In this document: piece after piece, positions 3,002 to 34,107 of the stretch
Position numbering within the stretch: the first letter of the stretch is position 1
Layout: the number at the start of each line of letters is the position of its first letter
From: Candidatus Aenigmatarchaeota archaeon
GTDB lineage: Archaea; Aenigmatarchaeota; Aenigmatarchaeia; QMZP01
Direction of reading: 5' to 3'
Length of the DNA stretch: 64,000 nucleotides
Assembly (NCBI GenBank): GCA_016185435.1
Contig: JACPNN010000005.1
Span: 22,588 to 86,587, forward strand
Position numbers and translations under genes: made by a program
The notes under the pieces: model-generated
Database searches by the model: none
Told to the model about the DNA's origin: nothing
What the model saw: only the letters and a program-made list of their open reading frames with translations

Positions 3002-6000
3002 TCAAATCTTCCCGAAGAACTGCAGGGCCCCGCCAATGACAATTATTATAAGGACGGCAACAGCCAGCAGCAGCGCGCCAGAATCTGCTGTCAGGGCAGT
3101 GCAGGGGGCGCAGCTGCCGCCGCAGTCGACTCCTTCCTCATTCCCGTCCTTTATGCCATTGCCGCAAGCCTGCTTCTCCGGGCAGCCCTCGTTTATCTGG
3201 CCGTCGCAGTTGTCATCAACATCATTCTCGCACGTCTCCTGCTGCGGCCCGACAGCCTTGCTGACCTCAACCCATTTGCCTTTCTGGCATATCTGTTTGC
3301 TAGGCTTGCATATCCCAACGTTCTTCCCGCCAGTTTCCATGACATCGTCTTCTTTGCAGCAGTTGCCGGCTTCGTCAATCTGCCCATTGCAGTCATTGTC
3401 AATGCCATCGCAGACCTCTGATGAAGGCAGGCCTCCATTGAAGCACTGGCATCCTGCTTCTTCCCTGCTTCTTGCCCCGCCAATATCATCCACCATGCCG
3501 TTGCAGTCATCATCCTTCCCATTGCAAACTTCCGGCTTCTTCTCATATGCTGTCTTTTCAATCCACTCCCCGCCAACACAGACTTTTTTTCTCGCTCCGC
3601 ACCCGCCTGCTGCAGGAGAAAGAAGAGCCTCATCCCCGTCATTGCATCCAAAACAGCCAAGCAGCGGCCTTTGAGGATCAGCCTGTTCATACTCATAGGT
3701 TTCGTCTGTTTTTCCGTCGCAGTCGTCATCAAGCCCATTGGCGCAGATCTCCTTCTTTTGCCCCACAGAGACATTGCCCCTGCAGATGACGCCGCTTCCA
3801 TCCAGGCTGCATGCCCATACGCCTTTGCAGATGCTGCCTTTCCAGTCATTGCACGAATTGCCCAAAATCTTCCCCGGCATGTCAAAGCCTTCATCAATCC
3901 GGCCATCGCAGTCATTGTCCCTTCCATCGCAGATTTCCAGAGCAAAAGGGCGGCTCCTGGGATCCGAATCATCGCAGTCTTCATAGTCGCAGTAGCCGTC
4001 CCTGTCATTGTCAGCGCAAGCTGCTACAGTAGCCTTTGCCGTGGAGACAGTCAGGTCAGATATGCCGACGACAGCCTCTGCCACAAAAACCTTTGTCTTA
4101 TTTGTCAGATTGTATCTGTGCTGAATGCTCCGGTTGATTCTGTTTTGCTGGCAGGACTCCCCTGAGTCACAAATGACAATTCCTGTGTCATCGCCGAAAT
4201 CAATCGACAGGCTGCTTATATTGAAATTCGCAGTGCCCTTCGGGAATGCTATGCTGAAATTAGCGTCTATTCTTGACTCAGTCACTGTCTTGCCGGTTAT
4301 GTTCAGCTCCACTTTCGGCATGACAGATATTGCCGCTGATGTCCAGTTTTTTGACTCCAGCATATCTGTCGCAGCCAGTGTCACATTGTATCTGCCCGGA
4401 TATTTGTAGGCATGCGTTATCGCTGATCCAGTGCCTGTCGAGCCGTCGCCAAAGTCCCATTTGAATTCAGTTATAGGGAATTCGTCTGCCGAATATGATT
4501 TGTCCGCGCTGAGGAATGTCGACTCGTCCGCAACCGGCAGTCCCGGGAAATATGTGAATATGGGCACCGGCACTGTCTTCTTCTTTTTGCACTCCCCGTT
4601 GCTGCATATCATCTTAAGTCTGTAGCAGTCGAAAATTTCTGAGGCGTTCTTGCTGTCCGGGGTGCAGTAATACTCATTCAGATACCGCTTGTCCACACAG
4701 CTATCATCATATGATTGCTTGAGGGCTGTGCCTGTCAGGCTTCCCTGAACCTCATAGTTCTGCCCGCCATCATCATCAACGCATCTCGCGTCAAATACGC
4801 GCACTGTTTTTGGGGAAGAGCGGGCCGAGGCCCCAAACTCGTCCGTGACTTTCAGGACAACATCATATGATTTTACCATCCTGTAGCTGTGGTATGTGTT
4901 CGGCCATGACGTCTTTTCAGTTTCCCCGTCCCCAAAATCCCACTCATAATATGCTATTTCGTCGCCATCCGGATCTTCGCTGTCCCCTGCATCAAAACTG
5001 ACATAGCCATTTACTTTCGTTCCCAGAGGGCTAATGGAGAAAATGGGCACAGGGGGGGAATTGGCAACAGGCAGGGAAGAGCTTGCATCAACCGTGACAA
5101 GCTTGCTAATGCTGCCGATTCCATCATTGTAGTAATCATACTCATTGTCAATCACAAAAAGCGTCACATTATAGACATTTGGCCGCCTGAATGCTATGTT
5201 GATTATGGGATCCCGTGAGACTGAATAATAGGACCCATTAATTCTCCAATAATATCCCCGTATCTCTCCGTCAGAATCGTAGCTTTCAGAGGCATCGAAT
5301 GTCGCGTTTTCCCTCGCCTTCGGCCTCTCCGGATAATAATTGAATTTGGCCACAGGATTGGTGTTCAGCTTTGACACAATTCTGACAGTGCCAGCCTTTG
5401 AGTTCTGGTCGCCGGTCGAATCGAATACTGTCAGTATTACAGAGTACTCTCCTGTGGATCTGTACTGGTGGGTTACTACAGATTTGGAAGTGCTGATTAT
5501 AGCGCCGTCTCCAAAGTCCCATTCATACCTTGTGATCCTGCCTTTCGTGGAATAGCTTCCGGTGGCATCAAATGTCACCTGCCTGTCTGGCAGAGCCTTT
5601 CTCGGGCTGATGGAAAAGTAGACGTGCACCGACGGCCACGAGGAGGTGACCCGTATATTCCTGCTCCTGGAGGACGAATTGCCTCCGCCATTCCTCACAG
5701 TGAGCCTGACAATATATGTCCTTTCAGACTGGAATATATGGTATGCCTGAGGCTCAATTGTAATGTCAGAATCCCCGTCGCTGTAATTCCATTCATACTG
5801 GCTTATCCCTCCCCTGGAATTCGAGGCATCAAAAAACACTTCCCGCCAGGGAGGAGGCCTGAAAGGGGAGTAGGAGAAAGCAGCTGTCAGAGGCTCGTTT
5901 TGGACAGCAATAGCCCTTGAAAAGGCTGATGTCTGGTTCCTGTTATCCTTGACTGTCAATACAGCGACATATGTGCCGGAAGTGTAGTAGGCGTGGGAGG

Positions 6001-6718
6001 TTATAATGCTTTCGTCCGACTCAATCACTGTCGTCCCGTCGCCGACATCCAAAGAATATTCTGTTATATTGCCATCAGGATCATAGCTGCCGGAAGTGTC
6101 GAACAGCACAGCTTCGGATTCGGCAGGATTCTGGGGGCTGATAGTGAAGAATGCAACAGGCAGAGCATTAGGCCTCTCGGCAGGCTGCCACGTGCCGGCC
6201 AAGCAGGTGAAGTTGCCTGTAGAGTTTGCAGCTGTCTCTCCCGGAGCCACGCATGCATTATCTCTCAGACACTCATCGGCATTGCAGCATCTCTTAGAAG
6301 TCGATAGATTAAAATTATTTCTGCAGACAACGCCGGAGCAACACTGATCTGAATCGCAGGTATCGCCTCTTGAAGAGCAAACCGGCTGCGAGACTCTAAC
6401 CACTTTGCCGGTCGAATTCCATCTGCTTGTGTTGTCAGTCAGGTTAAGGACAACGGTATAATTTCCGGCGGCTGAATAGCTGTGGCTCCTCGGGGCGGAA
6501 CTGCCGCTGACATTTGACCCGTCTCCAAAGTTCCATTTGAAGCTGGTTATTATACAGCCGCTGCATCTCGATGCAGCCGGGTCAAAGGTGACATTTGAGC
6601 CTGCCGAAGGATTCAGGGGCGTATAGCTGAATTGCGGCAAAGGGATGGCAAAAGCCAGAGGCGAAGCCAATACAGCAATAGAAAGGGCGAAAATGATGCC
6701 GTATGAAGGTGAGGCCAT
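3002..6718 (-). CDS. giant secreted surface protein: signal peptide, multiple PKD-like domains, Cys-rich CDGxDNDCDG repeats, C-terminal TM anchor
   Basis: N-terminal hydrophobic signal (MASPSYGIIFALSIAVLASPLAFA). Repeated FxYxP...VxFDASxSxDxDGxIxxYxWxFGDG blocks are PKD-like. Many DNDCDG / CxDxDDxCxG repeats. C-terminal hydrophobic stretch ALLLAVAVLIIIVIGGAL. Many N-x-S/T sequons. Confidence 0.8.
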   Translation of the reverse strand: MASPSYGIIFALSIAVLASPLAFAIPLPQFSYTPLNPSAGSNVTFDPAASRCSGCIITSFKWNFGDGSNVSGSSAPRSHSYSAAGNYTVVLNLTDNTSRWNSTGKVVRVSQPVCSSRGDTCDSDQCCSGVVCRNNFNLSTSKRCCNADECLRDNACVAPGETAANSTGNFTCLAGTWQPAERPNALPVAFFTISPQNPAESEAVLFDTSGSYDPDGNITEYSLDVGDGTTVIESDESIITSHAYYTSGTYVAVLTVKDNRNQTSAFSRAIAVQNEPLTAAFSYSPFRPPPWREVFFDASNSRGGISQYEWNYSDGDSDITIEPQAYHIFQSERTYIVRLTVRNGGGNSSSRSRNIRVTSSWPSVHVYFSISPRKALPDRQVTFDATGSYSTKGRITRYEWDFGDGAIISTSKSVVTHQYRSTGEYSVILTVFDSTGDQNSKAGTVRIVSKLNTNPVAKFNYYPERPKARENATFDASESYDSDGEIRGYYWRINGSYYSVSRDPIINIAFRRPNVYNVTLFVIDNEYDYYNDGIGSISKLVTVDASSSLPVANSPPVPIFSISPLGTKVNGYVSFDAGDSEDPDGDEIAYYEWDFGDGETEKTSWPNTYHSYRMVKSYDVVLKVTDEFGASARSSPKTVRVFDARCVDDDGGQNYEVQGSLTGTALKQSYDDSCVDKRYLNEYYCTPDSKNASEIFDCYRLKMICSNGECKKKKTVPVPIFTYFPGLPVADESTFLSADKSYSADEFPITEFKWDFGDGSTGTGSAITHAYKYPGRYNVTLAATDMLESKNWTSAAISVMPKVELNITGKTVTESRIDANFSIAFPKGTANFNISSLSIDFGDDTGIVICDSGESCQQNRINRSIQHRYNLTNKTKVFVAEAVVGISDLTVSTAKATVAACADNDRDGYCDYEDCDDSDPRSRPFALEICDGRDNDCDGRIDEGFDMPGKILGNSCNDWKGSICKGVWACSLDGSGVICRGNVSVGQKKEICANGLDDDCDGKTDETYEYEQADPQRPLLGCFGCNDGDEALLSPAAGGCGARKKVCVGGEWIEKTAYEKKPEVCNGKDDDCNGMVDDIGGARSREEAGCQCFNGGLPSSEVCDGIDNDCNGQIDEAGNCCKEDDVMETGGKNVGICKPSKQICQKGKWVEVSKAVGPQQETCENDVDDNCDGQINEGCPEKQACGNGIKDGNEEGVDCGGSCAPCTALTADSGALLLAVAVLIIIVIGGALQFFGKI

Positions 6719-6761: not shown

Positions 6762-9740
6762 TTGCCGCCCAATATACTTCCACATGCATGCCGGAGGATT
6801 ATGCAAAACGCATTCTATATGCTCCATCAGGATGTCCAGGCCCTGGCAGCCGAAAGGTTCGGCAGGCCGACCCCTGTCCAGCAGGCAGTGATACCAGCGC
6901 TGCTCAATAATAACGGACTCTCCGGCAAAGGGCTTTTGGTTATAGCGGAAACAGGATCCGGCAAGACAGAGGCCTGTATGCTTCCGTTATTCAGCAGGCT
7001 TGCTGAGAAGGAGCACAGGCCCATCTCCCTGCTGTACATTACCCCTCTCAGGAGCCTCAACAGGGACCTGATGAAAAGGCTCGTCTGGTGGTGCGAAAGG
7101 CTTGACATCAGCATATCCGTGAGGCATGGCGACACCTCCCAATATGAAAGGAGCATGCAGGCAGCCAACCCCGCTGAAATAATGATCCTTACCCCTGAAA
7201 CCCTTCAGGCCATCCTGGTGGGCAGGAGGATGAGGGAGCACCTGAAGAACGTCAGACATATCGTCATAGATGAAATACACGAGCTTGTCGGCAGCAAAAG
7301 GGGAAGCCAGCTTGCCGTAGGCCTGGAAAGGCTCAGGGCTGTAATAAATGAAAAAGGAGCACCTGATGCCGGAGATAAAGGAAAAGAAGAGCCTGACACA
7401 AGGCACAAAAATGCAGATGAAGAAGAAATAAATAAGGCGGATATTGAAAAAAATGAGACTGCAAAAGGGGAAAACAAGAATTCAGAGCCTTTCCAGATTA
7501 TAGGCCTTTCAGCGACAGTAGGCAATCCTGAAGAGGTGATGGCCTATCTTCATGCCGGTTCAATCCTTAACGCATTCAGCGCCAAAAGCATGCAAATTAT
7601 GGTCGAATACCCAAGAGAAAATGCCATAGACTATATCGCAAAGAAGATCGGGGAAAGCAAAAGCATGCTTATCTTTTCCAACACGCGGGAGACAGCTGAA
7701 GTGCTTTCAAGCAAGCTCAAAAGGGAGAATCTGGAGGTTGAAACACATCACTCCAGCCTTTCAAAAGAGGTGAGAGTCAAGGCTGAGGACGAATTCAAGT
7801 CAGGCAAAGTGAAAGCGATTGTATGCACATCAAGCCTGGAGCTGGGAATAGACATAGGGTCTGTAGACATGGTGCTGCAGTATGGCTCCCCCAGGCAGGT
7901 TTCAAAGCTCCTCCAAAGGGCGGGGAGGAGCGGCCACTCCTCGGGCAGGACGTCAAAGGGCCTGATAATAGCCCTTGATGCCGATGATGCTCTGGAGGCT
8001 GCTGCAATAGCAAGCCATGCAATGAAAGGGCTGATAGAGAAGGCAAGCATCTATGAGAAGCCGCTTGATGTGCTTGCCCACCAGCTTGCAGGGATGGCCT
8101 TGGACAAGTATGGCATAAGGCTGTCTGAGGCATATTCAATAGCAAAAAGGGCCTACCCCTTCAGGAACATTGAAATGCAGGAGCTTTTTGATGTCGCAAA
8201 AGCCATGGAAAGGCTGGGATTTTTCTGGATACTGGAAAGCGAAGATGGGAAACCTGAGAATTTTTCCATCAGGAGGAGGAGCAAGGCCTTTGAATACTAC
8301 AATGAAAACCTGTCCACGATACCTGTCACAAAAACTTACAGCATGATAGATGTCACAAGCAGGCAGCATGTGGCGACCCTTGATGCGGATTTCGTCTCAA
8401 TGAGCCTATACCCTTCGGCAGCATTCATCTCAAAGGGGCAGGGTTGGAAGGTAATCAGCATAGACAATGGCAAAGTTTTCGCAGAGCCCCTCGATGACAC
8501 CCAGGCAGCAGTGCCTGCGTGGCAGGGAGAGATGATACCTGTGCCGAAGGAGATAGCGAATGAGGTGGGAAAAATCAGGAGGAAAGTCAGGGAGATGCTT
8601 GAAAGCGGGACAGGCAATTCAAAGGCTGCGGCAGCAGAATATCTGGTTTCGAATTATCCTGTCAGCAAAAGCGCGGCAGAGCTGATTGCCGAGTACATTT
8701 CAAAGCAGCCGCCAGATGCGCTTGCCACTGACAGAAAGATAGTAATAGAGCACGGCATTGTGGAAAAGGAAGCATTCATGATAATCCATTCATGCAACGG
8801 CAGCAAGGCCAATGAGACTTTTGGCCGGGCTTTGGCCAGCCTGGCTCTCGGCAGGACCAGCAGCCTTGGGCTGGAAACAGATCCCTGCAGGATAATTTTC
8901 AGGCTTAAAAGGCGGTCGGACAGGTTCCATATGATGGACATGCTTGAAGGCATGTCAAAGCCGATGGTGCTGAAAGCTATCCAGCTTGGCCTGGCGGATT
9001 CAGAACTCCTGGCATGGCGTTTCAGCCATGTAGCCAGAAGATTCGGCATAATAGCAAAAGATGCCGATTATGGCAAGGTCTACCTGAAGAAGGCCGTCAA
9101 AGCCTATGTGCATCATCCGGCATACCTCGAGGCGCTCAATGAGGTGATCCAGGAAAAGCTCGACATACAGGCCGCTGAAGAGCTTGCAGAAGGCCTGAGA
9201 GATGGAACCCTTCACACGTCCAAGCATGACAGCCTTACGCCGATCGGCCTTGCAGGCATAGCAAAACGGTATGAAATAATAGCCTCTGCCCTGCCCAGCG
9301 AGGAGATACTGAGGATATTCAGGGAAAGGCTTCACAAAACAATGCTCGCCCTCGTGTGCTGCAATTGCGCCAGAATAGCCGCTATAGGAAGCGTCAAAGA
9401 ACTCCTTTCAAGGGACTTGTCCTGCAATAATTGCAGGTCAAAAATGCTTGGCATAACAAGCGTCCAAAGATCCTCCCAAATCCGGTCGGCAGTCGAAAAA
9501 AATCTTTCAAACAGGAAGCTTTCAGCAGAGGAGCAGAAGGAGCTTGACAGGCTGATGGACTCAGCAGCGCTTCTGGTAGCCTCGGGCCATCAGGCGCTGA
9601 AAGTGCTTGCAGCGAAGGGCATTGGAACCAAAACAGCGGCAAGGATACTTGCTAAAAGGAACACAGAGGACAAGCTATATGAGGATATACTGAAGGCAGA
9701 AAGGCAGTACATAAGGACCAGGGGGTTCTGGAGGGAATGA
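6762..9740 (+). CDS. lhr: Lhr-family large ATP-dependent helicase (DEAD/DEAH superfamily 2)
   Basis: Walker A (AETGSGKTEA), DEIH box (VIDEIHELVGSKRG) and a helicase C-domain (QRAGRSGH-like). ~990 aa with a Cys-rich C-terminal region. Internal low-complexity K/E/D-rich insert. Confidence 0.8.
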   Translation: MPPNILPHACRRIMQNAFYMLHQDVQALAAERFGRPTPVQQAVIPALLNNNGLSGKGLLVIAETGSGKTEACMLPLFSRLAEKEHRPISLLYITPLRSLNRDLMKRLVWWCERLDISISVRHGDTSQYERSMQAANPAEIMILTPETLQAILVGRRMREHLKNVRHIVIDEIHELVGSKRGSQLAVGLERLRAVINEKGAPDAGDKGKEEPDTRHKNADEEEINKADIEKNETAKGENKNSEPFQIIGLSATVGNPEEVMAYLHAGSILNAFSAKSMQIMVEYPRENAIDYIAKKIGESKSMLIFSNTRETAEVLSSKLKRENLEVETHHSSLSKEVRVKAEDEFKSGKVKAIVCTSSLELGIDIGSVDMVLQYGSPRQVSKLLQRAGRSGHSSGRTSKGLIIALDADDALEAAAIASHAMKGLIEKASIYEKPLDVLAHQLAGMALDKYGIRLSEAYSIAKRAYPFRNIEMQELFDVAKAMERLGFFWILESEDGKPENFSIRRRSKAFEYYNENLSTIPVTKTYSMIDVTSRQHVATLDADFVSMSLYPSAAFISKGQGWKVISIDNGKVFAEPLDDTQAAVPAWQGEMIPVPKEIANEVGKIRRKVREMLESGTGNSKAAAAEYLVSNYPVSKSAAELIAEYISKQPPDALATDRKIVIEHGIVEKEAFMIIHSCNGSKANETFGRALASLALGRTSSLGLETDPCRIIFRLKRRSDRFHMMDMLEGMSKPMVLKAIQLGLADSELLAWRFSHVARRFGIIAKDADYGKVYLKKAVKAYVHHPAYLEALNEVIQEKLDIQAAEELAEGLRDGTLHTSKHDSLTPIGLAGIAKRYEIIASALPSEEILRIFRERLHKTMLALVCCNCARIAAIGSVKELLSRDLSCNNCRSKMLGITSVQRSSQIRSAVEKNLSNRKLSAEEQKELDRLMDSAALLVASGHQALKVLAAKGIGTKTAARILAKRNTEDKLYEDILKAERQYIRTRGFWRE
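9711..9740 (+). repeat. 30-bp direct repeat copy 1 (last 30 nt of helicase gene incl. stop)
   Basis: ataaggaccagggggttctggagggaatga, identical to 10549..10578. Confidence 0.85.
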
Positions 9741-9825
9741 AGGCCTGGCGATTGCCCGGCCACCAAAATTTTTCCCCGGTCCGAGCATTTCCCGCTATTT
9801 AAATTGGGCATGCCAATATAACAAT

Positions 9826-10191
9826 ATGCGTAAGCCGAAGAGCATTATCAGTATGCAGGACATAAAAAACAGCAGAATAAGAAAAGGCGTGCGCAGCATA
9901 GTAGAGAGGCTTGAGAAGTACTACAAGCCTGAAAAAATATACCTCTTCGGCTCTGCCGCAAGGAGCGATTTCTCAGAATACAGCGACATAGATCTTCTTG
10001 TAGTAAAGGAAACAAATGAGACGAGCATACAAAGGATGTGGGAAGTATACAGGATTTTAAAGGGCAAAAGCCTGCCGGCTGATATCATTGTTCTCACACC
10101 CAGCGAACTGACAGCCAGAATAAGGTCCCAAGACCCATTTATTCTGGAGATAGTGCACCATGGGATCAATATTTATGAAAGAGTGGCTTGA
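9826..10191 (+). CDS. minimal nucleotidyltransferase (MNT) antitoxin-like protein
   Basis: GS...DxD nucleotidyltransferase motif (LFGSAARSDFSEYSDIDLLVV). Confidence 0.8.
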   Translation: MRKPKSIISMQDIKNSRIRKGVRSIVERLEKYYKPEKIYLFGSAARSDFSEYSDIDLLVVKETNETSIQRMWEVYRILKGKSLPADIIVLTPSELTARIRSQDPFILEIVHHGINIYERVA

Positions 10192-10552
10192 GAAGGCTGA
10201 GAAGGACAGCAGGGCCGCAAAAAAACTGGCATCAGACGAGCAGTTATGGGAACTTGCATGCTTTCATTGCCATCAGGCGGCGGAGAAATCCTTGAAGGCG
10301 TTCTTGGTTTTCAATAAGGGCAAGCTTCCGAGAATTCATGACCTAGAGACCTTAGCAGCCATGTGCGCCGAAATAGATAAGGATTTTGGAAGATTCGCCG
10401 ATGATGCCATATTCCTCAACCCTTTTTATATAATATCCAGATACCCTTCAGCAGCCTCAGATGTCTCCATGGATATTGTGCACGCTGCGCTGGTCGCCGC
10501 TGACACCATTATCGCAGAGGTCAGAAGGAAGATAGAAAAACAGGCCCAATAA
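10160..10552 (+). CDS. HEPN domain protein (toxin partner of MNT)
   Basis: Overlaps the MNT gene end. HEPN-like helical protein with an Rx4-6H-like region (ISRYP...H). Classic MNT-HEPN pair arrangement. Confidence 0.7.
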   Translation: MGSIFMKEWLEKAEKDSRAAKKLASDEQLWELACFHCHQAAEKSLKAFLVFNKGKLPRIHDLETLAAMCAEIDKDFGRFADDAIFLNPFYIISRYPSAASDVSMDIVHAALVAADTIIAEVRRKIEKQAQ

Positions 10553-10578
10553 GGACCAGGGGGTTCTGGAGGGAATGA
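10549..10578 (+). repeat. 30-bp direct repeat copy 2
   Basis: Identical to 9711..9740; lies immediately after the HEPN stop. Confidence 0.85.
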
Positions 10579-10596
10579 CAAGCCGGTGCAAACAGC

Positions 10597-11007
10597 CTAA
10601 TGCGCTTCTCCAGGCAGCATCCTTTTGACTGTTTTTGCCCTGTCAAAATCAGAATCAAGCGAGACGACATATGTCGTCCCATTGGCCATGGCAGCCTGCA
10701 CAACCATGGCATCTTCAATGTCCAGCCTGAAGCTCTCAGAGTGCTCCAAGGCCTTTATCCTGTCCCAGAGGGAGAGCGAATAGATGACCAGCCCCTTGTA
10801 AAGCGAAAGGGATGAGAGGAACTTTTTCATGTCATGGATCTTCTTCCCCTCCCTCTCCATGACTATCAGGATGGAATCTATTTCAATGTCAGAAATTACA
10901 GCCCTGATGCTGCCTTCCATCACCCTTTCCAGAAACTCCTCACATTCCCTGTGCCTGTCCTGCTGGAGTTCGACTTCAAGAAAGACGCTTGCGTCTATAA
11001 GATACAT
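10597..11007 (-). CDS. vapC: PIN-domain ribonuclease (VapC-like toxin)
   Basis: N-terminal MYLIDASVFLE with acidic residues spaced as in the PIN fold; ~135 aa. Confidence 0.75.
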   Translation of the reverse strand: MYLIDASVFLEVELQQDRHRECEEFLERVMEGSIRAVISDIEIDSILIVMEREGKKIHDMKKFLSSLSLYKGLVIYSLSLWDRIKALEHSESFRLDIEDAMVVQAAMANGTTYVVSLDSDFDRAKTVKRMLPGEAH

Positions 11008-11293
11008 GTCTCCACCTGTCTGCCCTTATTGTATGTGCTTCATGCCTCAGGTCCTTTGCAGATTTTTTAACATGCCTCAGCATGCCCTTTATGGCTTCAA
11101 TGGGATTGGAAATGCCCATTCCTGCAGCCATTTTCCTTGCCTCTTCCATGCTGCCGCTCGAGTCTGCCCAGCTTTTCAAGGCTATTTCCGCAGCATGGCT
11201 TATCGAGCCTTTCTGGTAGCCAAACCTTTCCATTGAGGCCTTCCTGAAGCCCCTTTCGGCTTCGTCCGATATTATGACCTTCAATTGTCCCAT
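10976..11293 (-). CDS. vapB: ribbon-helix-helix type antitoxin (VapB-like)
   Basis: Small protein immediately upstream of and overlapping the PIN gene. GQLKVIISDEAERGFRKASMERFGYQKGSISHAAEIALKSW resembles RHH/CopG. Confidence 0.6.
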   Translation of the reverse strand: MGQLKVIISDEAERGFRKASMERFGYQKGSISHAAEIALKSWADSSGSMEEARKMAAGMGISNPIEAIKGMLRHVKKSAKDLRHEAHTIRADRWRHVSYRRKRLS

Positions 11294-11368
11294 AAGTACT
11301 TATAGACTTATAGACTTAAATACCTCTAAATGAAGATGAGCGTGTCCAATTATTTCCGCAACATCCAG

Positions 11369-25152: not shown

Positions 25153-25728
25153 ATGGAAACTTTTTTAAATAAGGGAGGAGAGAAGGCAGGAATCGAAATA
25201 GCAGACAAAAGGCTATTCCTCAGGTATGCAATACCCTGCACGTCCACACTTGTGAAGAGAGGAACCGTTAAGAAGGAGCTTGTCAATGAGCTTCTTGATT
25301 ATGCTTTGAGAAAGAGGGAAATGCAGACAGATATAAGAGAGACCTTTCCTGTGGCTTACCTCGCCTGCAGGAAAATAGCTCAAAACAGAGGAAAAGGGGA
25401 GATAGGGCCAGAGGAGATAAGGGAGTATTTCTGGAACCTGCATGACGATGTCATCGAAAGGAGATTTGAGGAGAAGAGGGACTTCGACAAGGATGACTGC
25501 AGGATATGGGCCGGAAAGGTGCTGAGGCTGTTGGAAGACAACAGAGCAGAGGTGCTGACCCAGAGGAGAGAGAGAATTTTCAGAAATGCATTCGAGCCTC
25601 ACCTAAAGAAGGATGATTATGTTGTCACCCATTACGATTTCATCACAGAGAAGGTTTCAAGGGAAAATGCAAAAGCGATCTGGGAAGACAAAAACAGGCG
25701 GCTTGGGATAGGGACAACATTCCCATAA
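25153..25728 (+). CDS. hypothetical protein
   Basis: ORF of 191 aa, no recognisable motif. Confidence 0.4.
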   Translation: METFLNKGGEKAGIEIADKRLFLRYAIPCTSTLVKRGTVKKELVNELLDYALRKREMQTDIRETFPVAYLACRKIAQNRGKGEIGPEEIREYFWNLHDDVIERRFEEKRDFDKDDCRIWAGKVLRLLEDNRAEVLTQRRERIFRNAFEPHLKKDDYVVTHYDFITEKVSRENAKAIWEDKNRRLGIGTTFP

Positions 25729-25765: not shown

Positions 25766-26680
25766 TTGGAAAAAGAGCAGAAAGGCACAATTCTCGCATT
25801 TATTGCCGCCATAATCAGCGGTTTCGCCATATTCGCCAACAAGATATTCATAGTCGACCTAGAGCCGGTTGTTTTTACAGCAGTAAGGGCAATGCTGATA
25901 GGCCTTCTCTTTTTTCTCCTGTCCTTATGGTCCTTCAATTTTGATCTTTCCGGATTCAGGAAAGCCAGATGGAATTATCTGCTTGCAATAGGCATAATCG
26001 GGGGAGGCCTGGCATTCTATTTATTCTTCAGCGGCCTCAAGCTTACGACTGCGGGAAGAGCAGCCTTTTTGCACAAGACCCTGCCGCTCTTCACAACCAT
26101 TATTGCTTATGTCTTCCTGAAGGAAGCGATAACCAAAAAGCAGCTTATTGCCCTGATTCTCATGCTTGCAGGGGCGCTTGCCATATCGTCCACAGCCATC
26201 TCCCCTGACGCATTCTGGACAAATCCGGCTTTTGGCGATCTGCTTGTGATTGCAGCCACAATACTGTGGGGCGTGGAGAATGTGATTGCCAAGAAAGCTC
26301 TTCTTCAGAAAGAATCCCATTTTGTGGTGATGTTCGGAAGGATGTTCTTCGGCGCTGTCTTCCTTTTCGGAGCAATGCTCCTTTTAGGCAAATTTGAGCT
26401 TCTGCTTATGCTAAAGCAGTCACAAATACTAAACCTCATTGCATCAGCAGCAATACTTGCTGGCTATGTCCTGACCTACTACTGGAGCCTGAAACTCATC
26501 AATGTCTCAAAGGCTTCCACAATCCTCCTGTTTGCGCCGCTCATCACGCTTCTCCTGAGCATGGCCTTCATGGGCGAGCAGCCGCCATTGCTCCAGCTCG
26601 CAGGCTCTGCCCTGATCCTTGCAGGCGCTTTCGCGATTGCCAAAGTGAAGAGCGGGATTGAGCAGCCAAAGGCTGTCTGA
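25766..26680 (+). CDS. EamA/DMT-family transporter
   Basis: ~10 predicted TM helices in two internally repeated halves, typical of EamA. Confidence 0.8.
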   Translation: MEKEQKGTILAFIAAIISGFAIFANKIFIVDLEPVVFTAVRAMLIGLLFFLLSLWSFNFDLSGFRKARWNYLLAIGIIGGGLAFYLFFSGLKLTTAGRAAFLHKTLPLFTTIIAYVFLKEAITKKQLIALILMLAGALAISSTAISPDAFWTNPAFGDLLVIAATILWGVENVIAKKALLQKESHFVVMFGRMFFGAVFLFGAMLLLGKFELLLMLKQSQILNLIASAAILAGYVLTYYWSLKLINVSKASTILLFAPLITLLLSMAFMGEQPPLLQLAGSALILAGAFAIAKVKSGIEQPKAV

Positions 26681-27522: not shown

Positions 27523-27912
27523 ATGAGACATGTCATCTATGTCTTCGGCAACCCCCTGCTGAAAGAGGACAGCCTGCCACTTAAATTGCTGCCTCGCCTG
27601 AGAAAAGAGTTTCCTGATATTGATTTTGTTGAACTGGACCCTTCTGACAATATACATGAGCTCGGAAAAGAGCTGATCATACTTGATACTGTGCAGGGAA
27701 TAAGGAAAGTGGAAATTATAGAGAATACCGATTCCATAGAGACTGGTAAAGCTTATTCCCTGCATGACTTTGATCTCGGCCAGAACCTGAAATTAATGAA
27801 AAAATTAGAGCTGATAGAGAGGATAAGGATAATCGGGATACCTATGGGGATGAATAAAAATGAAGCCATAGAGCAAGTAAGAATCATACTGCAAAATCTT
27901 TTTTCAAAATAA
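27523..27912 (+). CDS. putative hydrogenase maturation protease (HycI/HybD-like)
   Basis: N-terminal IYVFGNPLLKEDSLP resembles the GNxLxxDDG motif of [NiFe]-hydrogenase C-terminal peptidases. A hydrogenase large subunit with a C-terminal extension after DPCMSCASH is 3 kb away. Confidence 0.5.
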   Translation: MRHVIYVFGNPLLKEDSLPLKLLPRLRKEFPDIDFVELDPSDNIHELGKELIILDTVQGIRKVEIIENTDSIETGKAYSLHDFDLGQNLKLMKKLELIERIRIIGIPMGMNKNEAIEQVRIILQNLFSK

Positions 27913-28674: not shown

Positions 28675-30027
28675 CTAAAACAGCCCCCAACTGAAATATG
28701 CCATCCCAGCCATAATAAGTGCTCCAGCAATCGAAATCAATATCCCGGCCTTTATCATTTCCTTCACATGGATATATCCTGTGGAATAGGCCAAAGCAGA
28801 AGGCGGCGTGCCCATGGGGAAGATGAAGTCAAGGCTTACCCCTATGGCCGCTGCAACCACGAGGTTTGTCATGTCAACGCCGAGCATGCCTGACAGGGCT
28901 GTTACTATGGGTATCAGGACTGCTGATGCTGCAGTATTGCTGATGAAGCTTGTCAGGGCTATGCCGACAACTCCCATGGCCAGCAGCACAAAGAAATAAT
29001 GCTGGCCTGCCAGCGAGGAGCCGAGGGAAGAGGAGACAATGTCGTCCAGCCCTGATTTGTCTATGGCCATTCCCAGGGCAATCCCCCCTCCAATAAGTAT
29101 CAGGGAGTCCCACCCCACCTTGTGGAAATCATGTGTATCGATGAGCCTGAACAGGTAAAGCAGGATTATGGGAACCAATGCTATAATGCTGTTATGTATC
29201 CCATGAACACTTTCTGTAACCCAGAGAAAGACTGTCAGGACAAATATTGCGGCTACCTTCTTCTGCTCCAGAGTGAACGGGTGGGGATGCTTTTTTGTGG
29301 CCAGCTTCCTGATTTCAGGCCTGAAAACATGATGGAGTACGAGCCAGCATGCAATGACCATCAGGACCATGAACGGAAAGCCTCTCACGCCCCATTCGAC
29401 AAAGCCGAATGTTATCCCTTTTTCGGCCAGGAATTTCTGGGTGATGACATTCGGCGTGCTGCCTATCAGCGTGCCTATCCCGCCTATGGTCGCCCCATAG
29501 CCGACAGCAAGCACCATTGATTTGGCAAAGTTGGAATGCATCTTCTTTATCCTGTTTTTCCTCAGAAGAATTACGGCTATGGGCATCATGATTGCCGCAG
29601 CAGCGGAATTGCTCATCCACATTGAAAGGAAGGCAGTGACAGCCACTGTTCCCAGCAGAACGGACTTGGCCGAGCTTCCAAACCTGCCCAGCACCTTGTA
29701 ACCCAGATACTCATCAAGCTTATGCCTGCTCATTGCCACTGCTATGGCGAACCCTCCCAGGACAAGGACAACCACCCTGTCAAAGAACTGGGAAAAAACA
29801 GCATCTGCCTGGAATCCCCCGGCAATCACAAGAAGAAAGGCCACAAGCAGAGCAGTAGCCTCAAGGGGCATGGCCTCTGATATCCACAAAGTCATGGCAA
29901 GAAGCGTTATCGCAAGAGTAGCTCTAGCCTGCGGCTGGAGATCAATCGGGAGCACATAAACAAGCGAGAACAGCATAAGTGCAAGAAATATTTTTCCGTA
30001 GAACCATTTTCTGTTCACTTCTATCAC
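28675..30027 (-). CDS. DASS/SLC13-family anion (sulfate/carboxylate) symporter
   Basis: ~450 aa polytopic membrane protein with duplicated halves and the SNxAA-like hairpin motif (SNSAAAAIMMP / SNTAASAVLIP). Confidence 0.7.
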   Translation of the reverse strand: MIEVNRKWFYGKIFLALMLFSLVYVLPIDLQPQARATLAITLLAMTLWISEAMPLEATALLVAFLLVIAGGFQADAVFSQFFDRVVVLVLGGFAIAVAMSRHKLDEYLGYKVLGRFGSSAKSVLLGTVAVTAFLSMWMSNSAAAAIMMPIAVILLRKNRIKKMHSNFAKSMVLAVGYGATIGGIGTLIGSTPNVITQKFLAEKGITFGFVEWGVRGFPFMVLMVIACWLVLHHVFRPEIRKLATKKHPHPFTLEQKKVAAIFVLTVFLWVTESVHGIHNSIIALVPIILLYLFRLIDTHDFHKVGWDSLILIGGGIALGMAIDKSGLDDIVSSSLGSSLAGQHYFFVLLAMGVVGIALTSFISNTAASAVLIPIVTALSGMLGVDMTNLVVAAAIGVSLDFIFPMGTPPSALAYSTGYIHVKEMIKAGILISIAGALIMAGMAYFSWGLF

Positions 30028-30950
30028 TCTTCTTTATAATCTATATATACGCTCCTTCCCTTTACAAACTTCACAGCGGCCAGAGCTGCATTGCATCCCT
30101 CCCCTGCAGATTTCAGGGCCTGGGGATTTCCTCCCGTGCAATCACCGGCTGCAAAGATACCATCAACATTCGTCTTGCCGTCCCTGTCCACAACCACATT
30201 GCCTGCTGTGTCCATCCCTATACCGAGCCTGTTTGAAAAAGCAGAGGCTGAGGCCACACCTACAGCGATGAAAACGCCGTCAAGCTGGGCTTTTGAACCG
30301 TCTGCCATCAGAAGATTCCTGAAGAACCTGTCGCCTTCGAAAGCTGAAATTTTTCCTTCAGTGAAACCGATATTGTTTTCCTTCAGTTTTTTCAAAAGAT
30401 TTTCTGATATCTCAACTGTTTCATCATTCGAAAATATCGTAATATTTTTTGTATAGGACAGAAGCTCCAGAGCTTCTTCAGCCGCATAGTTCCCGTTACC
30501 AATGACAGCAACTTTTTTGCTTTTATAGAAATAGCCGTCGCAGATGACGCAGTAATGGACACCCTTCCCTACGAATGTCTCCTCATTCTGCAGGCCTATC
30601 CTCTTGTACGATTTCCCGCAGGCTATGACGATGGCCTTTGCTTCATACTCGTTTTCGTCAGAGGTTTTGACCCTGAAGCCTTTCTCCTGCCTATCTACGC
30701 TTACCACCTCCTTTTCAAGAACCGCGGCCTTATATCGCTCCGCCTGTCTTCTGGAAGCCTGCTGGAACTCTTCCCCCCCTATGCCCTCAGGGAAGCCGAG
30801 GTAGTTGAACACTCTCTTGGCCTTGGCCATATTGCTTTTGCTCGGGAATCCTAGAACAAGGGTTTTCATATTTGCCCTGGCAGCATACATGCCTGCCGCC
30901 AAGCCCGCAGGTCCGGCGCCTATGATGAGCACATCAAATCCCTCAGCCAT
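30024..30950 (-). CDS. thioredoxin reductase-like FAD/NAD(P)-binding disulfide oxidoreductase
   Basis: FAD-binding motif GAGPAGLAAG, second Rossmann motif IGNGNYAAEEA, redox CxxC (CVIC), C-terminal GDCTGG. Confidence 0.75.
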   Translation of the reverse strand: MAEGFDVLIIGAGPAGLAAGMYAARANMKTLVLGFPSKSNMAKAKRVFNYLGFPEGIGGEEFQQASRRQAERYKAAVLEKEVVSVDRQEKGFRVKTSDENEYEAKAIVIACGKSYKRIGLQNEETFVGKGVHYCVICDGYFYKSKKVAVIGNGNYAAEEALELLSYTKNITIFSNDETVEISENLLKKLKENNIGFTEGKISAFEGDRFFRNLLMADGSKAQLDGVFIAVGVASASAFSNRLGIGMDTAGNVVVDRDGKTNVDGIFAAGDCTGGNPQALKSAGEGCNAALAAVKFVKGRSVYIDYKEE

Positions 30951-32235
30951 CTTCCCACCTCACCTTCAGGAAATGGCTGGCGCAGGACATGCACGGGTCA
31001 TAGGCCCTTATCAGCTTCTCTATCTCGTGCTCTATATCATGCCTTTCCATATCCCTGGACAGAAGCTCCGGAACAAAAGCTTTTATGTCCTTCTCCATCT
31101 GTATCTGGTTCTGGGCTGTCGGTATCACAAGGTTTCCATACCTTATCCTTCCATCTTCCATGAAGGAAAGGAGATAGTAAAGAGTGCCCCTTGGGGCCTC
31201 TATCACTCCAACGCCTTCGCTTGCCTTCGGCTTTATGACAGGCCTCGGCTCCTGTTTAAAGTCCCACGTCTCCATGATCTCAATCGCATTGTCTATCGAA
31301 TGGAGCATTTCCACCGCCTGTGCGAGATTGTTGGAGTATATGTTGTCGGAAGGGAATTTGGCAACGGCTTCAGGCACATCATGCAATGTGTCAGGATGCA
31401 TGTTATGCCTGTTGAGGTTCATCCTGGCCAGAGCCCCTACAGTGTATTCTTTACCCTCGAACCTGAATCCTGTTGCCTGCGAATAGGGTATCACAACCCT
31501 GTTCAGGTGGTCCCAGTAATGCCTTTCAGGTATGCAGGTTCCCTCTGAACTCATTATCTCCCCCCTCATGAAATTGTAATTCTCATTGGCTATCCCTACA
31601 TAGTTGCTTTTTCTTGTGAAATTGAAGTCGGATTCAAGCAGAATATCTATTAATTCAGTGGCAAATGCCCTTACAGAATAAAGCTCTTCAATGGATTTTT
31701 TTATGCCATTTTTCTCAGGCAATTTCAGAAACCCCCCAACCCCGGAAAAAATGGGGTGTATGGCCCTTCCTCCAACAAGCTTACAGAGCCTATTTCCAGC
31801 CCCCTTCACGATGAATGCCTGCCTCACAAGATCCTCATCCTTGTCCGCAAGCTCCATGACAGACTGCACGCCAAAGATGTCCGGAAGGACAAAGATATAC
31901 AGATGCAAGGCATGGTCCCTTATCATCAGCCCATACATGTTCAGATGCCTCAGGGCCCTGGTCTGGTCGCTGGGCTTGAAATCCAGGGCATTCTCAACAG
32001 CCTCTGTGCAGCATGACAGGTGAGCCACGCTGCATGTCCCGCATATCCTCGAGACAAGCTGGGGGACAGAATTGAACATCTTGCCCCTTATGGCCTGCGT
32101 ATAGAACCTCTTGTTCTCCACTATCTTCAGCTTGGCATCCAATACTTCCCCTTTCCTGACCTTGATATACAGATCTGCATGGCCCTCTATCTTGCTCAGG
32201 TTTTCGATGTTGATATCAAAGCTGTGCTGGTGCAT
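30943..32235 (-). CDS. [NiFe]-hydrogenase large subunit (group 3-like, minimal)
   Basis: N-terminal RICGTCSVAH and C-terminal DPCMSCASH Ni-binding motifs, with a short C-terminal extension (cleavage substrate). Confidence 0.85.
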   Translation of the reverse strand: MHQHSFDINIENLSKIEGHADLYIKVRKGEVLDAKLKIVENKRFYTQAIRGKMFNSVPQLVSRICGTCSVAHLSCCTEAVENALDFKPSDQTRALRHLNMYGLMIRDHALHLYIFVLPDIFGVQSVMELADKDEDLVRQAFIVKGAGNRLCKLVGGRAIHPIFSGVGGFLKLPEKNGIKKSIEELYSVRAFATELIDILLESDFNFTRKSNYVGIANENYNFMRGEIMSSEGTCIPERHYWDHLNRVVIPYSQATGFRFEGKEYTVGALARMNLNRHNMHPDTLHDVPEAVAKFPSDNIYSNNLAQAVEMLHSIDNAIEIMETWDFKQEPRPVIKPKASEGVGVIEAPRGTLYYLLSFMEDGRIRYGNLVIPTAQNQIQMEKDIKAFVPELLSRDMERHDIEHEIEKLIRAYDPCMSCASHFLKVRWEDG

Positions 32236-32303
32236 TCTATCCTCTTCTCCGAATATATTATTGCTTATCTTTTCAAAGTTTATGCAAAATCTTATTAATC
32301 ATT

Positions 32304-32681
32304 TCAACCGCCCAGTGAACAGCCGCTCATCTGGCTCAGCTTTTCAAAGGTAAGAAGGCCCTCAGCCCTCTTTCCGTCCCTGAACTCCCATGTCGGGTAG
32401 CCTGTTATTCTTGCCTGTTTGCAGACTTCTGTTTGGGTCCTGTCGGCATTTGAGCATTCAATATAGTTCACTTTGCTCCAGCTCGTGCTGAACATCTTCT
32501 TCTGCTCTTCGCAATGCGGGCACCAGAAGGCCCCATACATCTTTGCCCCGCTGTCTGTCAGGCATTTTGCGAAGGAATCGTATTTGCCTTCTATATTTTT
32601 GTTCATGCTCAAAAATACAATGGCTGCAATTATTACCACCCCCGCTGTCAATCCAATCTGAATCTTTTTCTCAGTTTTCAT
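32304..32681 (-). CDS. membrane-anchored thioredoxin-fold protein (CPHC active site)
   Basis: N-terminal TM helix then WCPHCEEQK thioredoxin/DsbA-like motif. Confidence 0.6.
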   Translation of the reverse strand: MKTEKKIQIGLTAGVVIIAAIVFLSMNKNIEGKYDSFAKCLTDSGAKMYGAFWCPHCEEQKKMFSTSWSKVNYIECSNADRTQTEVCKQARITGYPTWEFRDGKRAEGLLTFEKLSQMSGCSLGG

Positions 32682-33214
32682 TGCTTACCCCCTTTTTCAT
32701 TGCTATCCCGGCCCACAATGCCAAACTCAATCAGATATTTATTCAGTATATTAAGAAAGCTTTCCTCAACTATGGGGCATCCGGGCACAGTCTCATCCAC
32801 CCTGATTATCTCGTGCAAAGGAGATACCTTCTTTCTGTAGGGGAATTTCCTGAGAATGGGCATAATCTCCCTCGTGGTCTGCTCATCGAAGAAATTCCTG
32901 TGGTTTGAGGGGGAGCCGTCAATAGCGCAGCTGCCTATGGCCACAACCCTTTTGCTGTTCCTCCTGATCTTCCTCAGCATCTTTTCCTCCTTGAAGCCTG
33001 ATATGGCCCCCTCCACAAAGGCCACATCAATATCCTTCACAACATTCTTCTGCTGTATAACCCTTGCATACTTGAACTCCACAAGGTCCCTCCACCTGAA
33101 AAAATATTCATTGAGAAGCTCTGTAAAAACAATGACGCAGCCCTCATCACCGGTAAATGAGAATACACCGACCTTCAGTTTCTTTTTCCCGTCGCCTTTG
33201 GCTTCCAGGACCAT
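32678..33214 (-). CDS. [NiFe]-hydrogenase small subunit (MvhG/delta-like)
   Basis: Fe-S ligating motifs GDEGC, GSCAIDGS and VPGCP. Confidence 0.7.
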   Translation of the reverse strand: MVLEAKGDGKKKLKVGVFSFTGDEGCVIVFTELLNEYFFRWRDLVEFKYARVIQQKNVVKDIDVAFVEGAISGFKEEKMLRKIRRNSKRVVAIGSCAIDGSPSNHRNFFDEQTTREIMPILRKFPYRKKVSPLHEIIRVDETVPGCPIVEESFLNILNKYLIEFGIVGRDSNEKGGKQ

Positions 33215-33331: not shown

Positions 33332-33656
33332 TCAAGCCGCCCTTCTTGTCTCTTCCCTTGTTCTCCCGTCTCTTCTGTAGGTTTCGAATTCTCTTGCAGC
33401 CCTTTCATCTGTTGCCCTCAGCAGCCTTGCGGCTTTTTCCCTTATTGTCGCTGTGTTTGTCGTCCTTAGGTCCTCCTCTATGTCCCTCGCTACATCCCTC
33501 GCTGTTTCAGCGCTTGCGCCGGCCCTTCTCAGAGCTTTCTCGATCTTGCTCCTGTCGAAGTCCTCTGCTCTCCTGTCCCTTTTCCTGACCCTTATCGTGG
33601 TCAAAATTCTCACCTCCTTCCGTACTCTTGCCTGAAACGGATTATATACGCGCATT
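33332..33656 (-). CDS. ATP-cone domain protein
   Basis: IRVRKRDRRAEDFDRSKIEKALRRAG matches the ATP-cone N-terminus. Start trimmed to MRVYNPF; a palindrome TTGAAAC-GT-GTTTCAA (33656..33671) overlaps the start, and a TATA-like tttttatag lies upstream. Confidence 0.45.
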
Positions 33657-34107
33657 GAAACGTGTTTCAAGGGTGCTATAAAAACTGTTTCACCCAAAAT
33701 CGGCCATAGGAGGCATTATGGTGCTGTGCATCGTATCTCTAATAATATTTGCAGTGCTGGGGATTTTCTCAGCCAGATACAGGCCTCTGGCCAAAGAAGC
33801 GTTCAACTGCACATTCAGGCTGGTGACCCTGAGGCCCTGCGAGAGCGGCCTGGACAGGAGGATAAAGATGGCCTTAGTCGTAAGAACCTCAAAAAAAGCC
33901 CCTTTTTTATCAGGCTTTGTCTATAAACATTTCAGCATTCTTTCCATGGTTTTCACGATAATATTTTTCGCAAGCCTTCTGATAGCCGCAAACGGCCTCT
34001 ACAACTACTTCATACACGGGTCGTGCGACCCGAATGGAGGAGTGTGCGTGCTGAACGGGGGGAAGTAGATTTTCTATTACTGATTTTGGCCTATTGTTTG
34101 TGGCCTA

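Follow-up and report, generated by a model that had tools for sequence, protein, structure and literature searches.

A 64,000-nt stretch of DNA from Candidatus Aenigmatarchaeota archaeon, a DPANN archaeon (Aenigmarchaeota), was analysed and is referred to below as the window. It carries a minimal [NiFe]-hydrogenase, made up of a small subunit (SSU) and a large subunit (LSU), in one gene run with a thioredoxin reductase (TrxR)-like flavoprotein. Hydrogenase and flavoprotein recur together in other genomes, in several gene arrangements and as single-chain fusions, far beyond what chance adjacency would give. Judged from the sequences, the three proteins would, on balance, form a cytoplasmic H2:disulfide oxidoreductase, most likely an H2:thioredoxin oxidoreductase.

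Genes were assigned to families by Pfam and NCBIfam searches of the open reading frames (ORFs) of the window. The operon and its continuation are as follows.

32678-33214, minus strand: SSU, [NiFe]-hydrogenase small subunit, 178 aa (PF01058, 2e-18)
32304-32681, minus strand: TrxL, thioredoxin-fold membrane-anchored protein, 125 aa (WCPHC; weak Pfam Thioredoxin match)
30943-32235, minus strand: LSU, [NiFe]-hydrogenase large subunit, 430 aa (PF00374)
30024-30950, minus strand: TrxR-like flavoprotein, 308 aa (PF07992, 8e-44; TIGR01292 below cut-off)
28675-30027, minus strand: DASS-family anion:Na+ symporter (TIGR00785, 308 bits, above cut-off)

An earlier note on this DNA had described the first four of these as co-directional genes, and the ORFs are found on the minus strand with exactly the ends that it gave. 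It also had their stops and starts overlapping, which is so at SSU/TrxL (4 nt) and LSU/TrxR (8 nt) but not at TrxL/LSU, where a 68-nt A/T-rich spacer parts the two genes. The run continues past 30024, the GTG start of the DASS gene overlapping the stop codon of the TrxR-like gene by a 4-nt junction. Intergenic stretches were inspected by eye only, and an Rfam scan of the window gave no matches.

Linkage of the hydrogenase to TrxR-like proteins

The window was compared with 80 species-representative loci in which LSU is 53-61% identical to that of the window, neighbours being sought within 6 kb; these and further loci are given L numbers below. In two of them, L076 and L080, a single ORF encodes a TrxR-like domain, an Ala/Pro-rich linker and SSU. 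Searched against a database, the fusion ORF matched at least 29 clusters, formed at 90% identity, in which PF07992 and PF01058 are both present. They are 416-561 aa long, apart from one fragment, are 52-100% identical to the query and, where the source is named, come mostly from Aenigmarchaeota. The linker varies from one fusion to another and has low complexity. The CxxC pair is kept in 29 of 29 clusters, and the cysteine motifs of SSU in all 25 of the full-length fusions that were aligned. LSU follows every fusion gene whose context was examined. The order in L087-L090 is DASS, HypC, DUF6390/HypC-like, EamA, TrxR::SSU, LSU, and L091 has the same order from HypC on, with an ABC-transporter gene in the slot of DASS; in L087 and L089/L090 a protease homologue comes after LSU on the opposite strand. 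A profile search of 1.84 billion representatives placed all the fusions in a single cluster at 50% identity, so the fusion has a single origin and did not come about repeatedly in different phyla.

The same genes are also found side by side. The order TrxR-SSU-LSU, with genes that abut or overlap, occurs in L006, L082, L083, L092 and L093, and L094 has TrxR-HypC...SSU-LSU. The order of the window, LSU-TrxR-DASS, is repeated with identical 8-nt and 4-nt overlaps in L095/L096, which are independent samples with a TrxR 93% identical to that of the window; the 4-nt TrxR/DASS overlap is present in L081 as well as in L095. In neighbour-joining trees of LSU and of TrxR the linked loci fall into at least two clades, one with the fusion and split forms and one with the window, L081, L006, L082 and L083. 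A non-orthologous TrxR occupies the slot upstream of SSU in L021 (2860-3801; 34% identity, CIVC, no HRR, degenerate GxGxxA). When the genomic context of 11 TrxR-like homologues was looked up, nine were hydrogenase-linked.

The association between TrxR and hydrogenase thus exceeds chance adjacency by far, and the fusions (the Rosetta-stone argument) together with the recurrent linkage indicate a physical association. The genetic coupling of the hydrogenase to a TrxR homologue, as the earlier note had put it, is borne out by the LSU-TrxR-DASS and TrxR-SSU-LSU loci, the L021 TrxR and the fusion clusters. Its concern that the synteny might be confined to the window genome is answered by the several arrangements in which TrxR recurs elsewhere.

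The TrxR-like flavoprotein

The flavoprotein has an FAD motif, GAGPAG, at residues 11-16 and a redox pair, CVIC, which aligns with CATC of canonical TrxR. The NADPH 2'-phosphate site HRRxxxR is not present (TIFSNDETVEISE, against TLIHRRDTLRSEK in canonical TrxR), SNDE taking the place of HRR(D). The GxGxxA motif is retained, and the chain ends in a YIDY tail that is conserved within its family, which is widespread in DPANN and CPR organisms. Its score against TIGR01292, 256.9 bits, is below the cut-off of 343.45. The closest solved relative is 5NII (8e-63), the TrxR of Desulfovibrio vulgaris known as DvTRi, with a weaker match to the FFTR structure 6GNA (1.5e-32).

NAD(P)H fails to reduce DvTRi, but the enzyme reduces Trx1, and its physiological reductant is an open question (PMC5627308). 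The same study defined the TRi motif as TQ/NGK in place of HRRD and found no TRi in Archaea (PMC5627308). The window protein, with SNDE, does not carry the TRi signature, and many of its family relatives have S[NQH]GK (SNGK, SQGK, SHGK). Common to DvTRi and the window protein are the retention of FAD and CxxC and the loss of HRRD; the window protein differs in SNDE, in its YIDY tail, and in being archaeal and hydrogenase-linked. Other NAD(P)H-independent TrxRs or relatives that have been named are FFTR, DTR, DFTR and DDOR. On these features we predict that the TrxR-like protein is an NAD(P)H-independent disulfide reductase, and propose it as the electron acceptor of the hydrogenase.

A minimal 3b-like hydrogenase

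The nickel-site motifs of LSU are intact (RICGTC, with C65 and C68; DPCMSCASH, with C415, C418 and H421) and are invariant in the LSU alignment, A1; a C-terminal extension of 9 residues follows DPCMSCASH. The best NCBIfam matches are the sulfhydrogenase alpha models ShyA (265 bits, cut-off 700) and HydA (224 bits, cut-off 880). Among solved structures the best match is the alpha subunit of Pyrococcus furiosus sulfhydrogenase I (PfSH-I), 9NEZ (1.4e-62), followed by 5YXY (1.6e-61) and, lower, MvhA (1.4e-42). A protein of a Candidatus Aenigmarchaeota archaeon metagenome-assembled genome (MAG) at NCBI has the same sequence as LSU (100% identity). GC content and gene types had suggested that the DNA might come from a methanogen or a member of the Methanosarcinales, an origin that was dropped in view of this match. 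By these similarities the hydrogenase is 3b-like. The earlier note had allowed that such a placement might make the neighbouring flavoprotein a known diaphorase subunit; the objection does not hold, as LSU is 3b-like but the flavoprotein differs from the known 3b diaphorase.

SSU is short. It covers just residues 3-152 of the 261-aa PfSH-I delta subunit in alignment, and aligns to residues 12-174 of HoxY (5XF9; E 2e-13). It has three cysteines in total (C26, C96 and C155). The position of the first Cys ligand is taken by Asp23, in the motif TGDEGC rather than the canonical CxGC (residues 19-26, at 33136-33159). A survey of 88 SSUs found that the proximal-cluster motif is non-canonical in the whole family, being either xDEGC, as in the window, or C[CS]EDS. 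FrhG is a known case of a proximal cluster with an Asp ligand, and HoxY has a proximal cluster only and passes electrons to a flavin-containing module. Neither a Tat signal nor a transmembrane (TM) helix was found in SSU, so the enzyme would be cytoplasmic. As read from the alignments, the small subunit keeps the proximal-cluster domain only, and the two subunits together make up a minimal hydrogenase.

Neither of the diaphorase subunits of 3b enzymes, beta (FeS) or gamma (FAD/[2Fe-2S], NAD(P)-binding), was found in the window, nor were Hdr, MvhD, a ferredoxin or any FeS or flavoprotein partner besides the TrxR-like protein. Searches of the window for ferredoxin, small HypC, VKOR, CcdA-like, DsbA, HypD/HypE and WCxxC thioredoxins also gave nothing. 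The hydrogenase had been called minimal, and lacking a typical diaphorase or HdrA-sized partner; both descriptions agree with the three SSU cysteines, the partial delta alignment and the gene content of the window. Across the 80 related loci the conserved core is SSU and LSU, and clustering of their ORFs showed no conserved third redox subunit (beta/gamma diaphorase, Hdr or ferredoxin), the recurrent neighbours being HypC-like, EamA, protease and Hyp genes only. Papers on DPANN and Aenigmarchaeota genomes class such hydrogenases as 3b, NADPH-coupled or fermentative (PMC8561730, PMC8407114).

Proposed electron path and alternatives

In the scheme that we propose, the [NiFe] site of LSU, which is 3b-like, would split H2, and the electrons would move to the only cluster of SSU, the proximal [4Fe-4S] one with Asp/Cys3 ligation. 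As there are neither medial and distal clusters nor a beta/gamma diaphorase, that cluster would pass them straight to the FAD of the TrxR-like flavoprotein, which may dock where the missing medial/distal-cluster domain would sit. From there the CVIC disulfide would reduce a thioredoxin of the cytoplasm, or some other disulfide substrate, the gene for which would be elsewhere in the genome. Gene order, motifs, homologies, fusions and synteny are what the sequences show; we infer complex formation in this archaeon, the direct cluster-to-flavin path, the direction of electron flow and the final acceptor. The potentials are -414 mV for H+/H2 and about -270 mV for thioredoxin, so that H2-driven reduction would be downhill and would come near equilibrium only at ppm-level H2.

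Several observations weigh against this scheme. About 68 of the 80 representative loci are without a TrxR-fold gene within 6 kb, so TrxR is a lineage-specific partner and not a universal one for this hydrogenase family. In L081 (83% identity) a methyltransferase gene on the opposite strand lies between LSU and TrxR. TrxR-like homologues without an adjacent hydrogenase occur in L084-L086, and the hydrogenase-free L086 has the order peroxiredoxin-TrxR-ferredoxin; given how widespread its family is, the TrxR-like protein may simply be a housekeeping TrxR. A cytoplasmic thioredoxin was not found in the 64-kb window. An AlphaFold2 model of a natural fusion, P0241, made from a 25-sequence alignment (mean pLDDT 71.6, pTM 0.52), has a disordered linker; at that pTM it gives no support for a defined TrxR-SSU interface and speaks neither way. 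Lastly, a single-cluster ferredoxin, Fer4_15, accompanies TrxR, and could be the real carrier or a third participant.

The gene inserted in L081 (2313-3233, minus strand) encodes an N6/N4 DNA methyltransferase, and transposase fragments follow DASS there. Together these point to a recent rearrangement of that locus.

The ferredoxin leads to the alternative that survives best, although we consider it unlikely. The TrxR-like protein would be FFTR-like and the hydrogenase an H2:ferredoxin oxidoreductase, the two being tied by a shared ferredoxin and shared regulation, with no direct transfer from SSU to FAD. Fer4_15 is found beside the TrxR-linked hydrogenase in L006 (4096-4329), L082 (9245-9493), L083 (9095-9340), L087 (9436-9660) and L093 (8026-8259), and directly after TrxR in the hydrogenase-free L086 (5920-6180), and the hydrogenase loci that have no TrxR link were all found to lack it; the FFTR structure is moreover a detectable homologue of the TrxR-like protein, as given above. 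A diffusible carrier is, however, hard to square with covalent TrxR::SSU fusions, Fer4_15 was not found in the 64-kb window either, and the single, surface-near cluster of SSU could itself act as a ferredoxin. The presence of the ferredoxin at TrxR-linked loci also suggests a bolder and improbable variant, in which the three proteins would be an Mvh/Hdr-like bifurcating H2:ferredoxin/disulfide oxidoreductase.

A second alternative changes the acceptor, with the TrxR-like protein as a replacement diaphorase or terminal reductase that acts on NAD+, polysulfide/S0 (as in sulfhydrogenase), a low-molecular-weight disulfide brought into the cell by DASS or EamA, or O2. Relatives in group 3b are sulfhydrogenases, DASS and EamA are conserved in the cluster, and a thioredoxin gene is adjacent in none of the loci. 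The flavoprotein itself keeps GxGxxA, and has the acidic SNDE where NADH-specific enzymes often have Asp/Glu, but conservation of these acidic residues does not extend through the family. The strict conservation of CxxC in the fusions, and the reduction of Trx1 but lack of reduction by NAD(P)H in DvTRi (PMC5627308), make this reading improbable.

It is equally improbable that the adjacency is incidental, a housekeeping TrxR sharing a unit with DASS in a compact DPANN genome: the conserved TrxR-DASS overlap, the gene inserted in L081, the breadth of the TrxR-like family and the many hydrogenase loci without TrxR would suit it, but linkage in at least three arrangements plus fusions, the hydrogenase linkage of nine of the 11 closest TrxR homologues looked up, and the place of DASS in the conserved hydrogenase neighbourhood of the fusion clade speak against it.

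TrxL and orf116

The product of the second gene of the operon, TrxL, had been taken in the earlier note as a redox partner of the hydrogenase. The comparison makes it unlikely that TrxL is a cytoplasmic partner. Topology heuristics give TrxL one N-terminal TM helix, at residues 7-25, with positive charge on its N-terminal side. Its best solved match, over residues 39-122, is the periplasmic Trx-like domain of the VKOR of Synechococcus (3KP8/3KP9; E 1.1e-18), and the alignment with 3KP8 includes both CPHC and a second pair, EC...C. Among the 80 loci the only homologue is in L021 (32% identity), where it has a lipoprotein-type signal and is the middle gene of a trio (9609-11330) between a VKOR (PF07884, 6.5e-26) and a CcdA-like gene, about 5 kb from TrxR. 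No VKOR homologue was found in the window by tblastn, so that TrxL is neither fused to VKOR nor beside it there. TrxL shares CPHC, EC...C and a membrane tether with the VKOR Trx-like domain, but differs in being unfused and inside a hydrogenase operon. Outside the window, only L081, the closest relative for which that region is sequenced, has TrxL placed between SSU and LSU; none of the 80 representative loci does. TrxL is probably an extracytoplasmic, membrane-anchored DsbA-like protein with a VKOR-type Trx domain, and not a substrate of TrxR.

That TrxL might be a cytoplasmic thioredoxin was considered and rejected, on account of the homology to the periplasmic VKOR Trx domain, the lipoprotein-type signal of the L021 homologue and a charge pattern that follows the positive-inside rule.

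A second candidate for envelope thiol chemistry lies near the operon.

33718-34068, plus strand: orf116, 2-TM protein with five invariant Cys, without a Pfam or NCBIfam match

The invariant cysteines of orf116 are C4, C31, C41, C103 and C110 (alignment A2). The loop between the TM segments is strongly basic and therefore probably cytoplasmic. Relatives include L003:1454-1930, L008:3562-4032, L027:9935-10888 and others, and in 14 of the 80 loci orf116 and the hydrogenase are no more than 6 kb apart. In Micrarchaeota the orf116 module is fused, at the N-terminal side, to a DsbA-like domain (PF13462/PF01323). These features suggest that orf116 may represent a membrane thiol-disulfide module of a new DsbB/VKOR/CcdA-like kind, and it is a candidate for the membrane partner of TrxL. 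TrxL would be co-expressed with the hydrogenase and would probably work with the nearby orf116. Genes for DsbA-like, Trx-CcdA-like or VKOR proteins are within 6 kb of the hydrogenase in about 17 of the 80 loci.

In L008, L011 and L013 (about 1.7-7.3 kb) there is a co-directional run of DsbA-like, SufS-like, orf116, two small ORFs, PF01794, SSU and LSU. The PF01794 gene encodes a Ferric_reduct/MsrQ-like membrane protein, and the run again ties the hydrogenase to envelope redox functions. A 1238-aa ORF of the window, at 3002-6718 (minus strand), has 52 cysteines and an N-terminus that looks like a signal; its product is probably a surface protein rich in Cys, of the type that relies on extracytoplasmic disulfide machinery.

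If electrons were to leave the cytoplasm, an H2-powered transmembrane thiol relay can be drawn, from the CxxC of the TrxR-like protein to the cytoplasmic pair C31/C41 of orf116, on to its external pair C103/C110 and thence to the extracytoplasmic CPHC protein. We think this a long shot. Were it true, a symbiotic archaeon without a respiratory chain could keep its surface proteins, or external substrates, reduced by H2.

Neighbouring genes and related loci

The remaining genes of the neighbourhood are on the plus strand.

25153-25728, plus strand: HypC-like/DUF6390-like accessory protein, 191 aa, the HypC-like part C-terminal (PF01455, 5.9e-5, below cut-off)
25766-26680, plus strand: EamA-family (DMT) transporter (PF00892, 7.5e-46)
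27523-27912, plus strand: putative hydrogenase maturation endopeptidase, 129 aa (weak HycI and TIGR00072 matches, E 9e-4 and 3e-4)

The maturation protease had been named as such in the earlier note, and the HycI-type match, though weak, agrees with it; a homologue lies within a few kb of LSU in 74 of the 80 related loci, mostly on the opposite strand and just downstream. HypC-like homologues are near the hydrogenase in many loci and are annotated DUF6390/HupF_HypC in L087, L091 and L093. The EamA cluster is present in 35 of the 80 loci; EamA, whose closeness to the HypC-like gene and the hydrogenase is conserved, is directly upstream of TrxR::SSU in L087-L091. DASS recurs beside the hydrogenase genes of other Aenigmarchaeota and is additionally found at the hydrogenase loci L003 and L021. 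DASS, small HypC, the 170-190-aa DUF6390/HypC-like protein and EamA make up a conserved hydrogenase neighbourhood (the window, L087-L091 and L092-L094), and two transporters accompany a cytoplasmic hydrogenase without evident reason. Directly upstream of the hydrogenase operon is a stand-alone ATP-cone protein of 121 aa (33332-33697, minus strand), which is not conserved at related loci.

The source labels of the 80 loci are Aenigmarchaeota, Micrarchaeota, Iainarchaeota and, unexpectedly, Nitrososphaeraceae. The two-subunit hydrogenase, with LSU 53-59% identical to that of the window, is found in MAGs labelled Nitrososphaera or Nitrososphaeraceae at L005, L007, L017, L018, L032, L033, L042, L053, L057, L059, L062 and L077. 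HypE-like genes flank the hydrogenase in these loci. A review on ammonia-oxidising archaea gives hydrogenases only as the four-subunit 3b enzyme in Nitrosocaldus or as Ehr complexes (PMC10432482).

One hydrogenase clade (L031, L039, L041 and L071) has a TrxR-fold flavoprotein about 1.5 kb upstream of SSU on the opposite strand. In this protein TTLF or STLF replaces CxxC while GGGNSA is kept, and it therefore resembles not a disulfide reductase but a ferredoxin/flavodoxin-NAD(P)+ reductase of TrxR type.

Comparison with known systems

The nearest functional precedent is from Thermococcus. The direct transfer of electrons from H2 to TrxR by FrhAGB of T. onnurineus is reported by Jung et al. (2020), according to PMC7278568 and PMC13333549, which cite that work. 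As far as those citing accounts go, the likeness would be that of a soluble [NiFe]-hydrogenase feeding a low-molecular-weight TrxR flavoprotein from H2, while FrhAGB has three subunits, with FrhB and a three-cluster FrhG, and its TrxR is mainly NAD(P)H-using whereas that of the window is without the NADPH site. The window TrxR shares an operon with a single-cluster SSU or, in relatives, is fused to it. We know of no reported operon or fusion of FrhAGB with TrxR. In the searchable literature we found no described operon or fusion of a two-subunit, single-cluster [NiFe]-hydrogenase with an NAD(P)H-independent TrxR. The earlier suggestion of a hydrogen-linked thiol/disulfide module is supported in part: the fusions and operons favour the link of hydrogenase to TrxR but not the membership of TrxL, and in view of the Thermococcus precedent such a module is not wholly new.

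With the group 3b enzymes (P. furiosus sulfhydrogenases I and II, the cytosolic hydrogenase of T. kodakarensis) the window hydrogenase shares LSU similarity, a cytoplasmic location, the active-site motifs and the processing extension. It differs from them in having no beta/gamma subunits and no medial/distal-cluster domain, in DEGC or C[CS]EDS in place of CxGC, and in its TrxR-fold partner. HoxY of group 3d (5XF9, a chain of 189 aa) is a short small subunit of similar size, but the window has neither a 3d-like LSU nor HoxF/HoxU, and Asp replaces the first Cys.

The group 3c complex MvhAGD-HdrABC would be alike in H2-driven disulfide reduction and in a hydrogenase docked to a flavoprotein, and HdrA has a TrxR-like fold. 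MvhD, HdrA, HdrB and HdrC were, however, not found in the window or in related loci, and the window LSU is nearer to 3b. Compared to HdrA, the window flavoprotein is without FeS insertions, being a plain TrxR of 308 aa that carries CxxC, and there is no evidence of bifurcation.

Implications

If the proposed H2:disulfide oxidoreductase is correct, it would give a physiological partner and a role to the "3b-type" hydrogenases of DPANN archaea, which are now read, on the model of four-subunit enzymes, as NADPH-coupled and fermentative despite the missing subunits, and one branch of the NAD(P)H-independent TrxR family would draw its electrons from H2. The chain of NiFe site, one [4Fe-4S] cluster, FAD and CxxC would be close to the smallest conceivable from H2 to thiol, and the natural single-chain fusions would be ready constructs for biochemistry and structure determination. 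Ultra-small symbiotic archaea would then balance their thiol redox state from environmental H2, without a pyridine-nucleotide pool.

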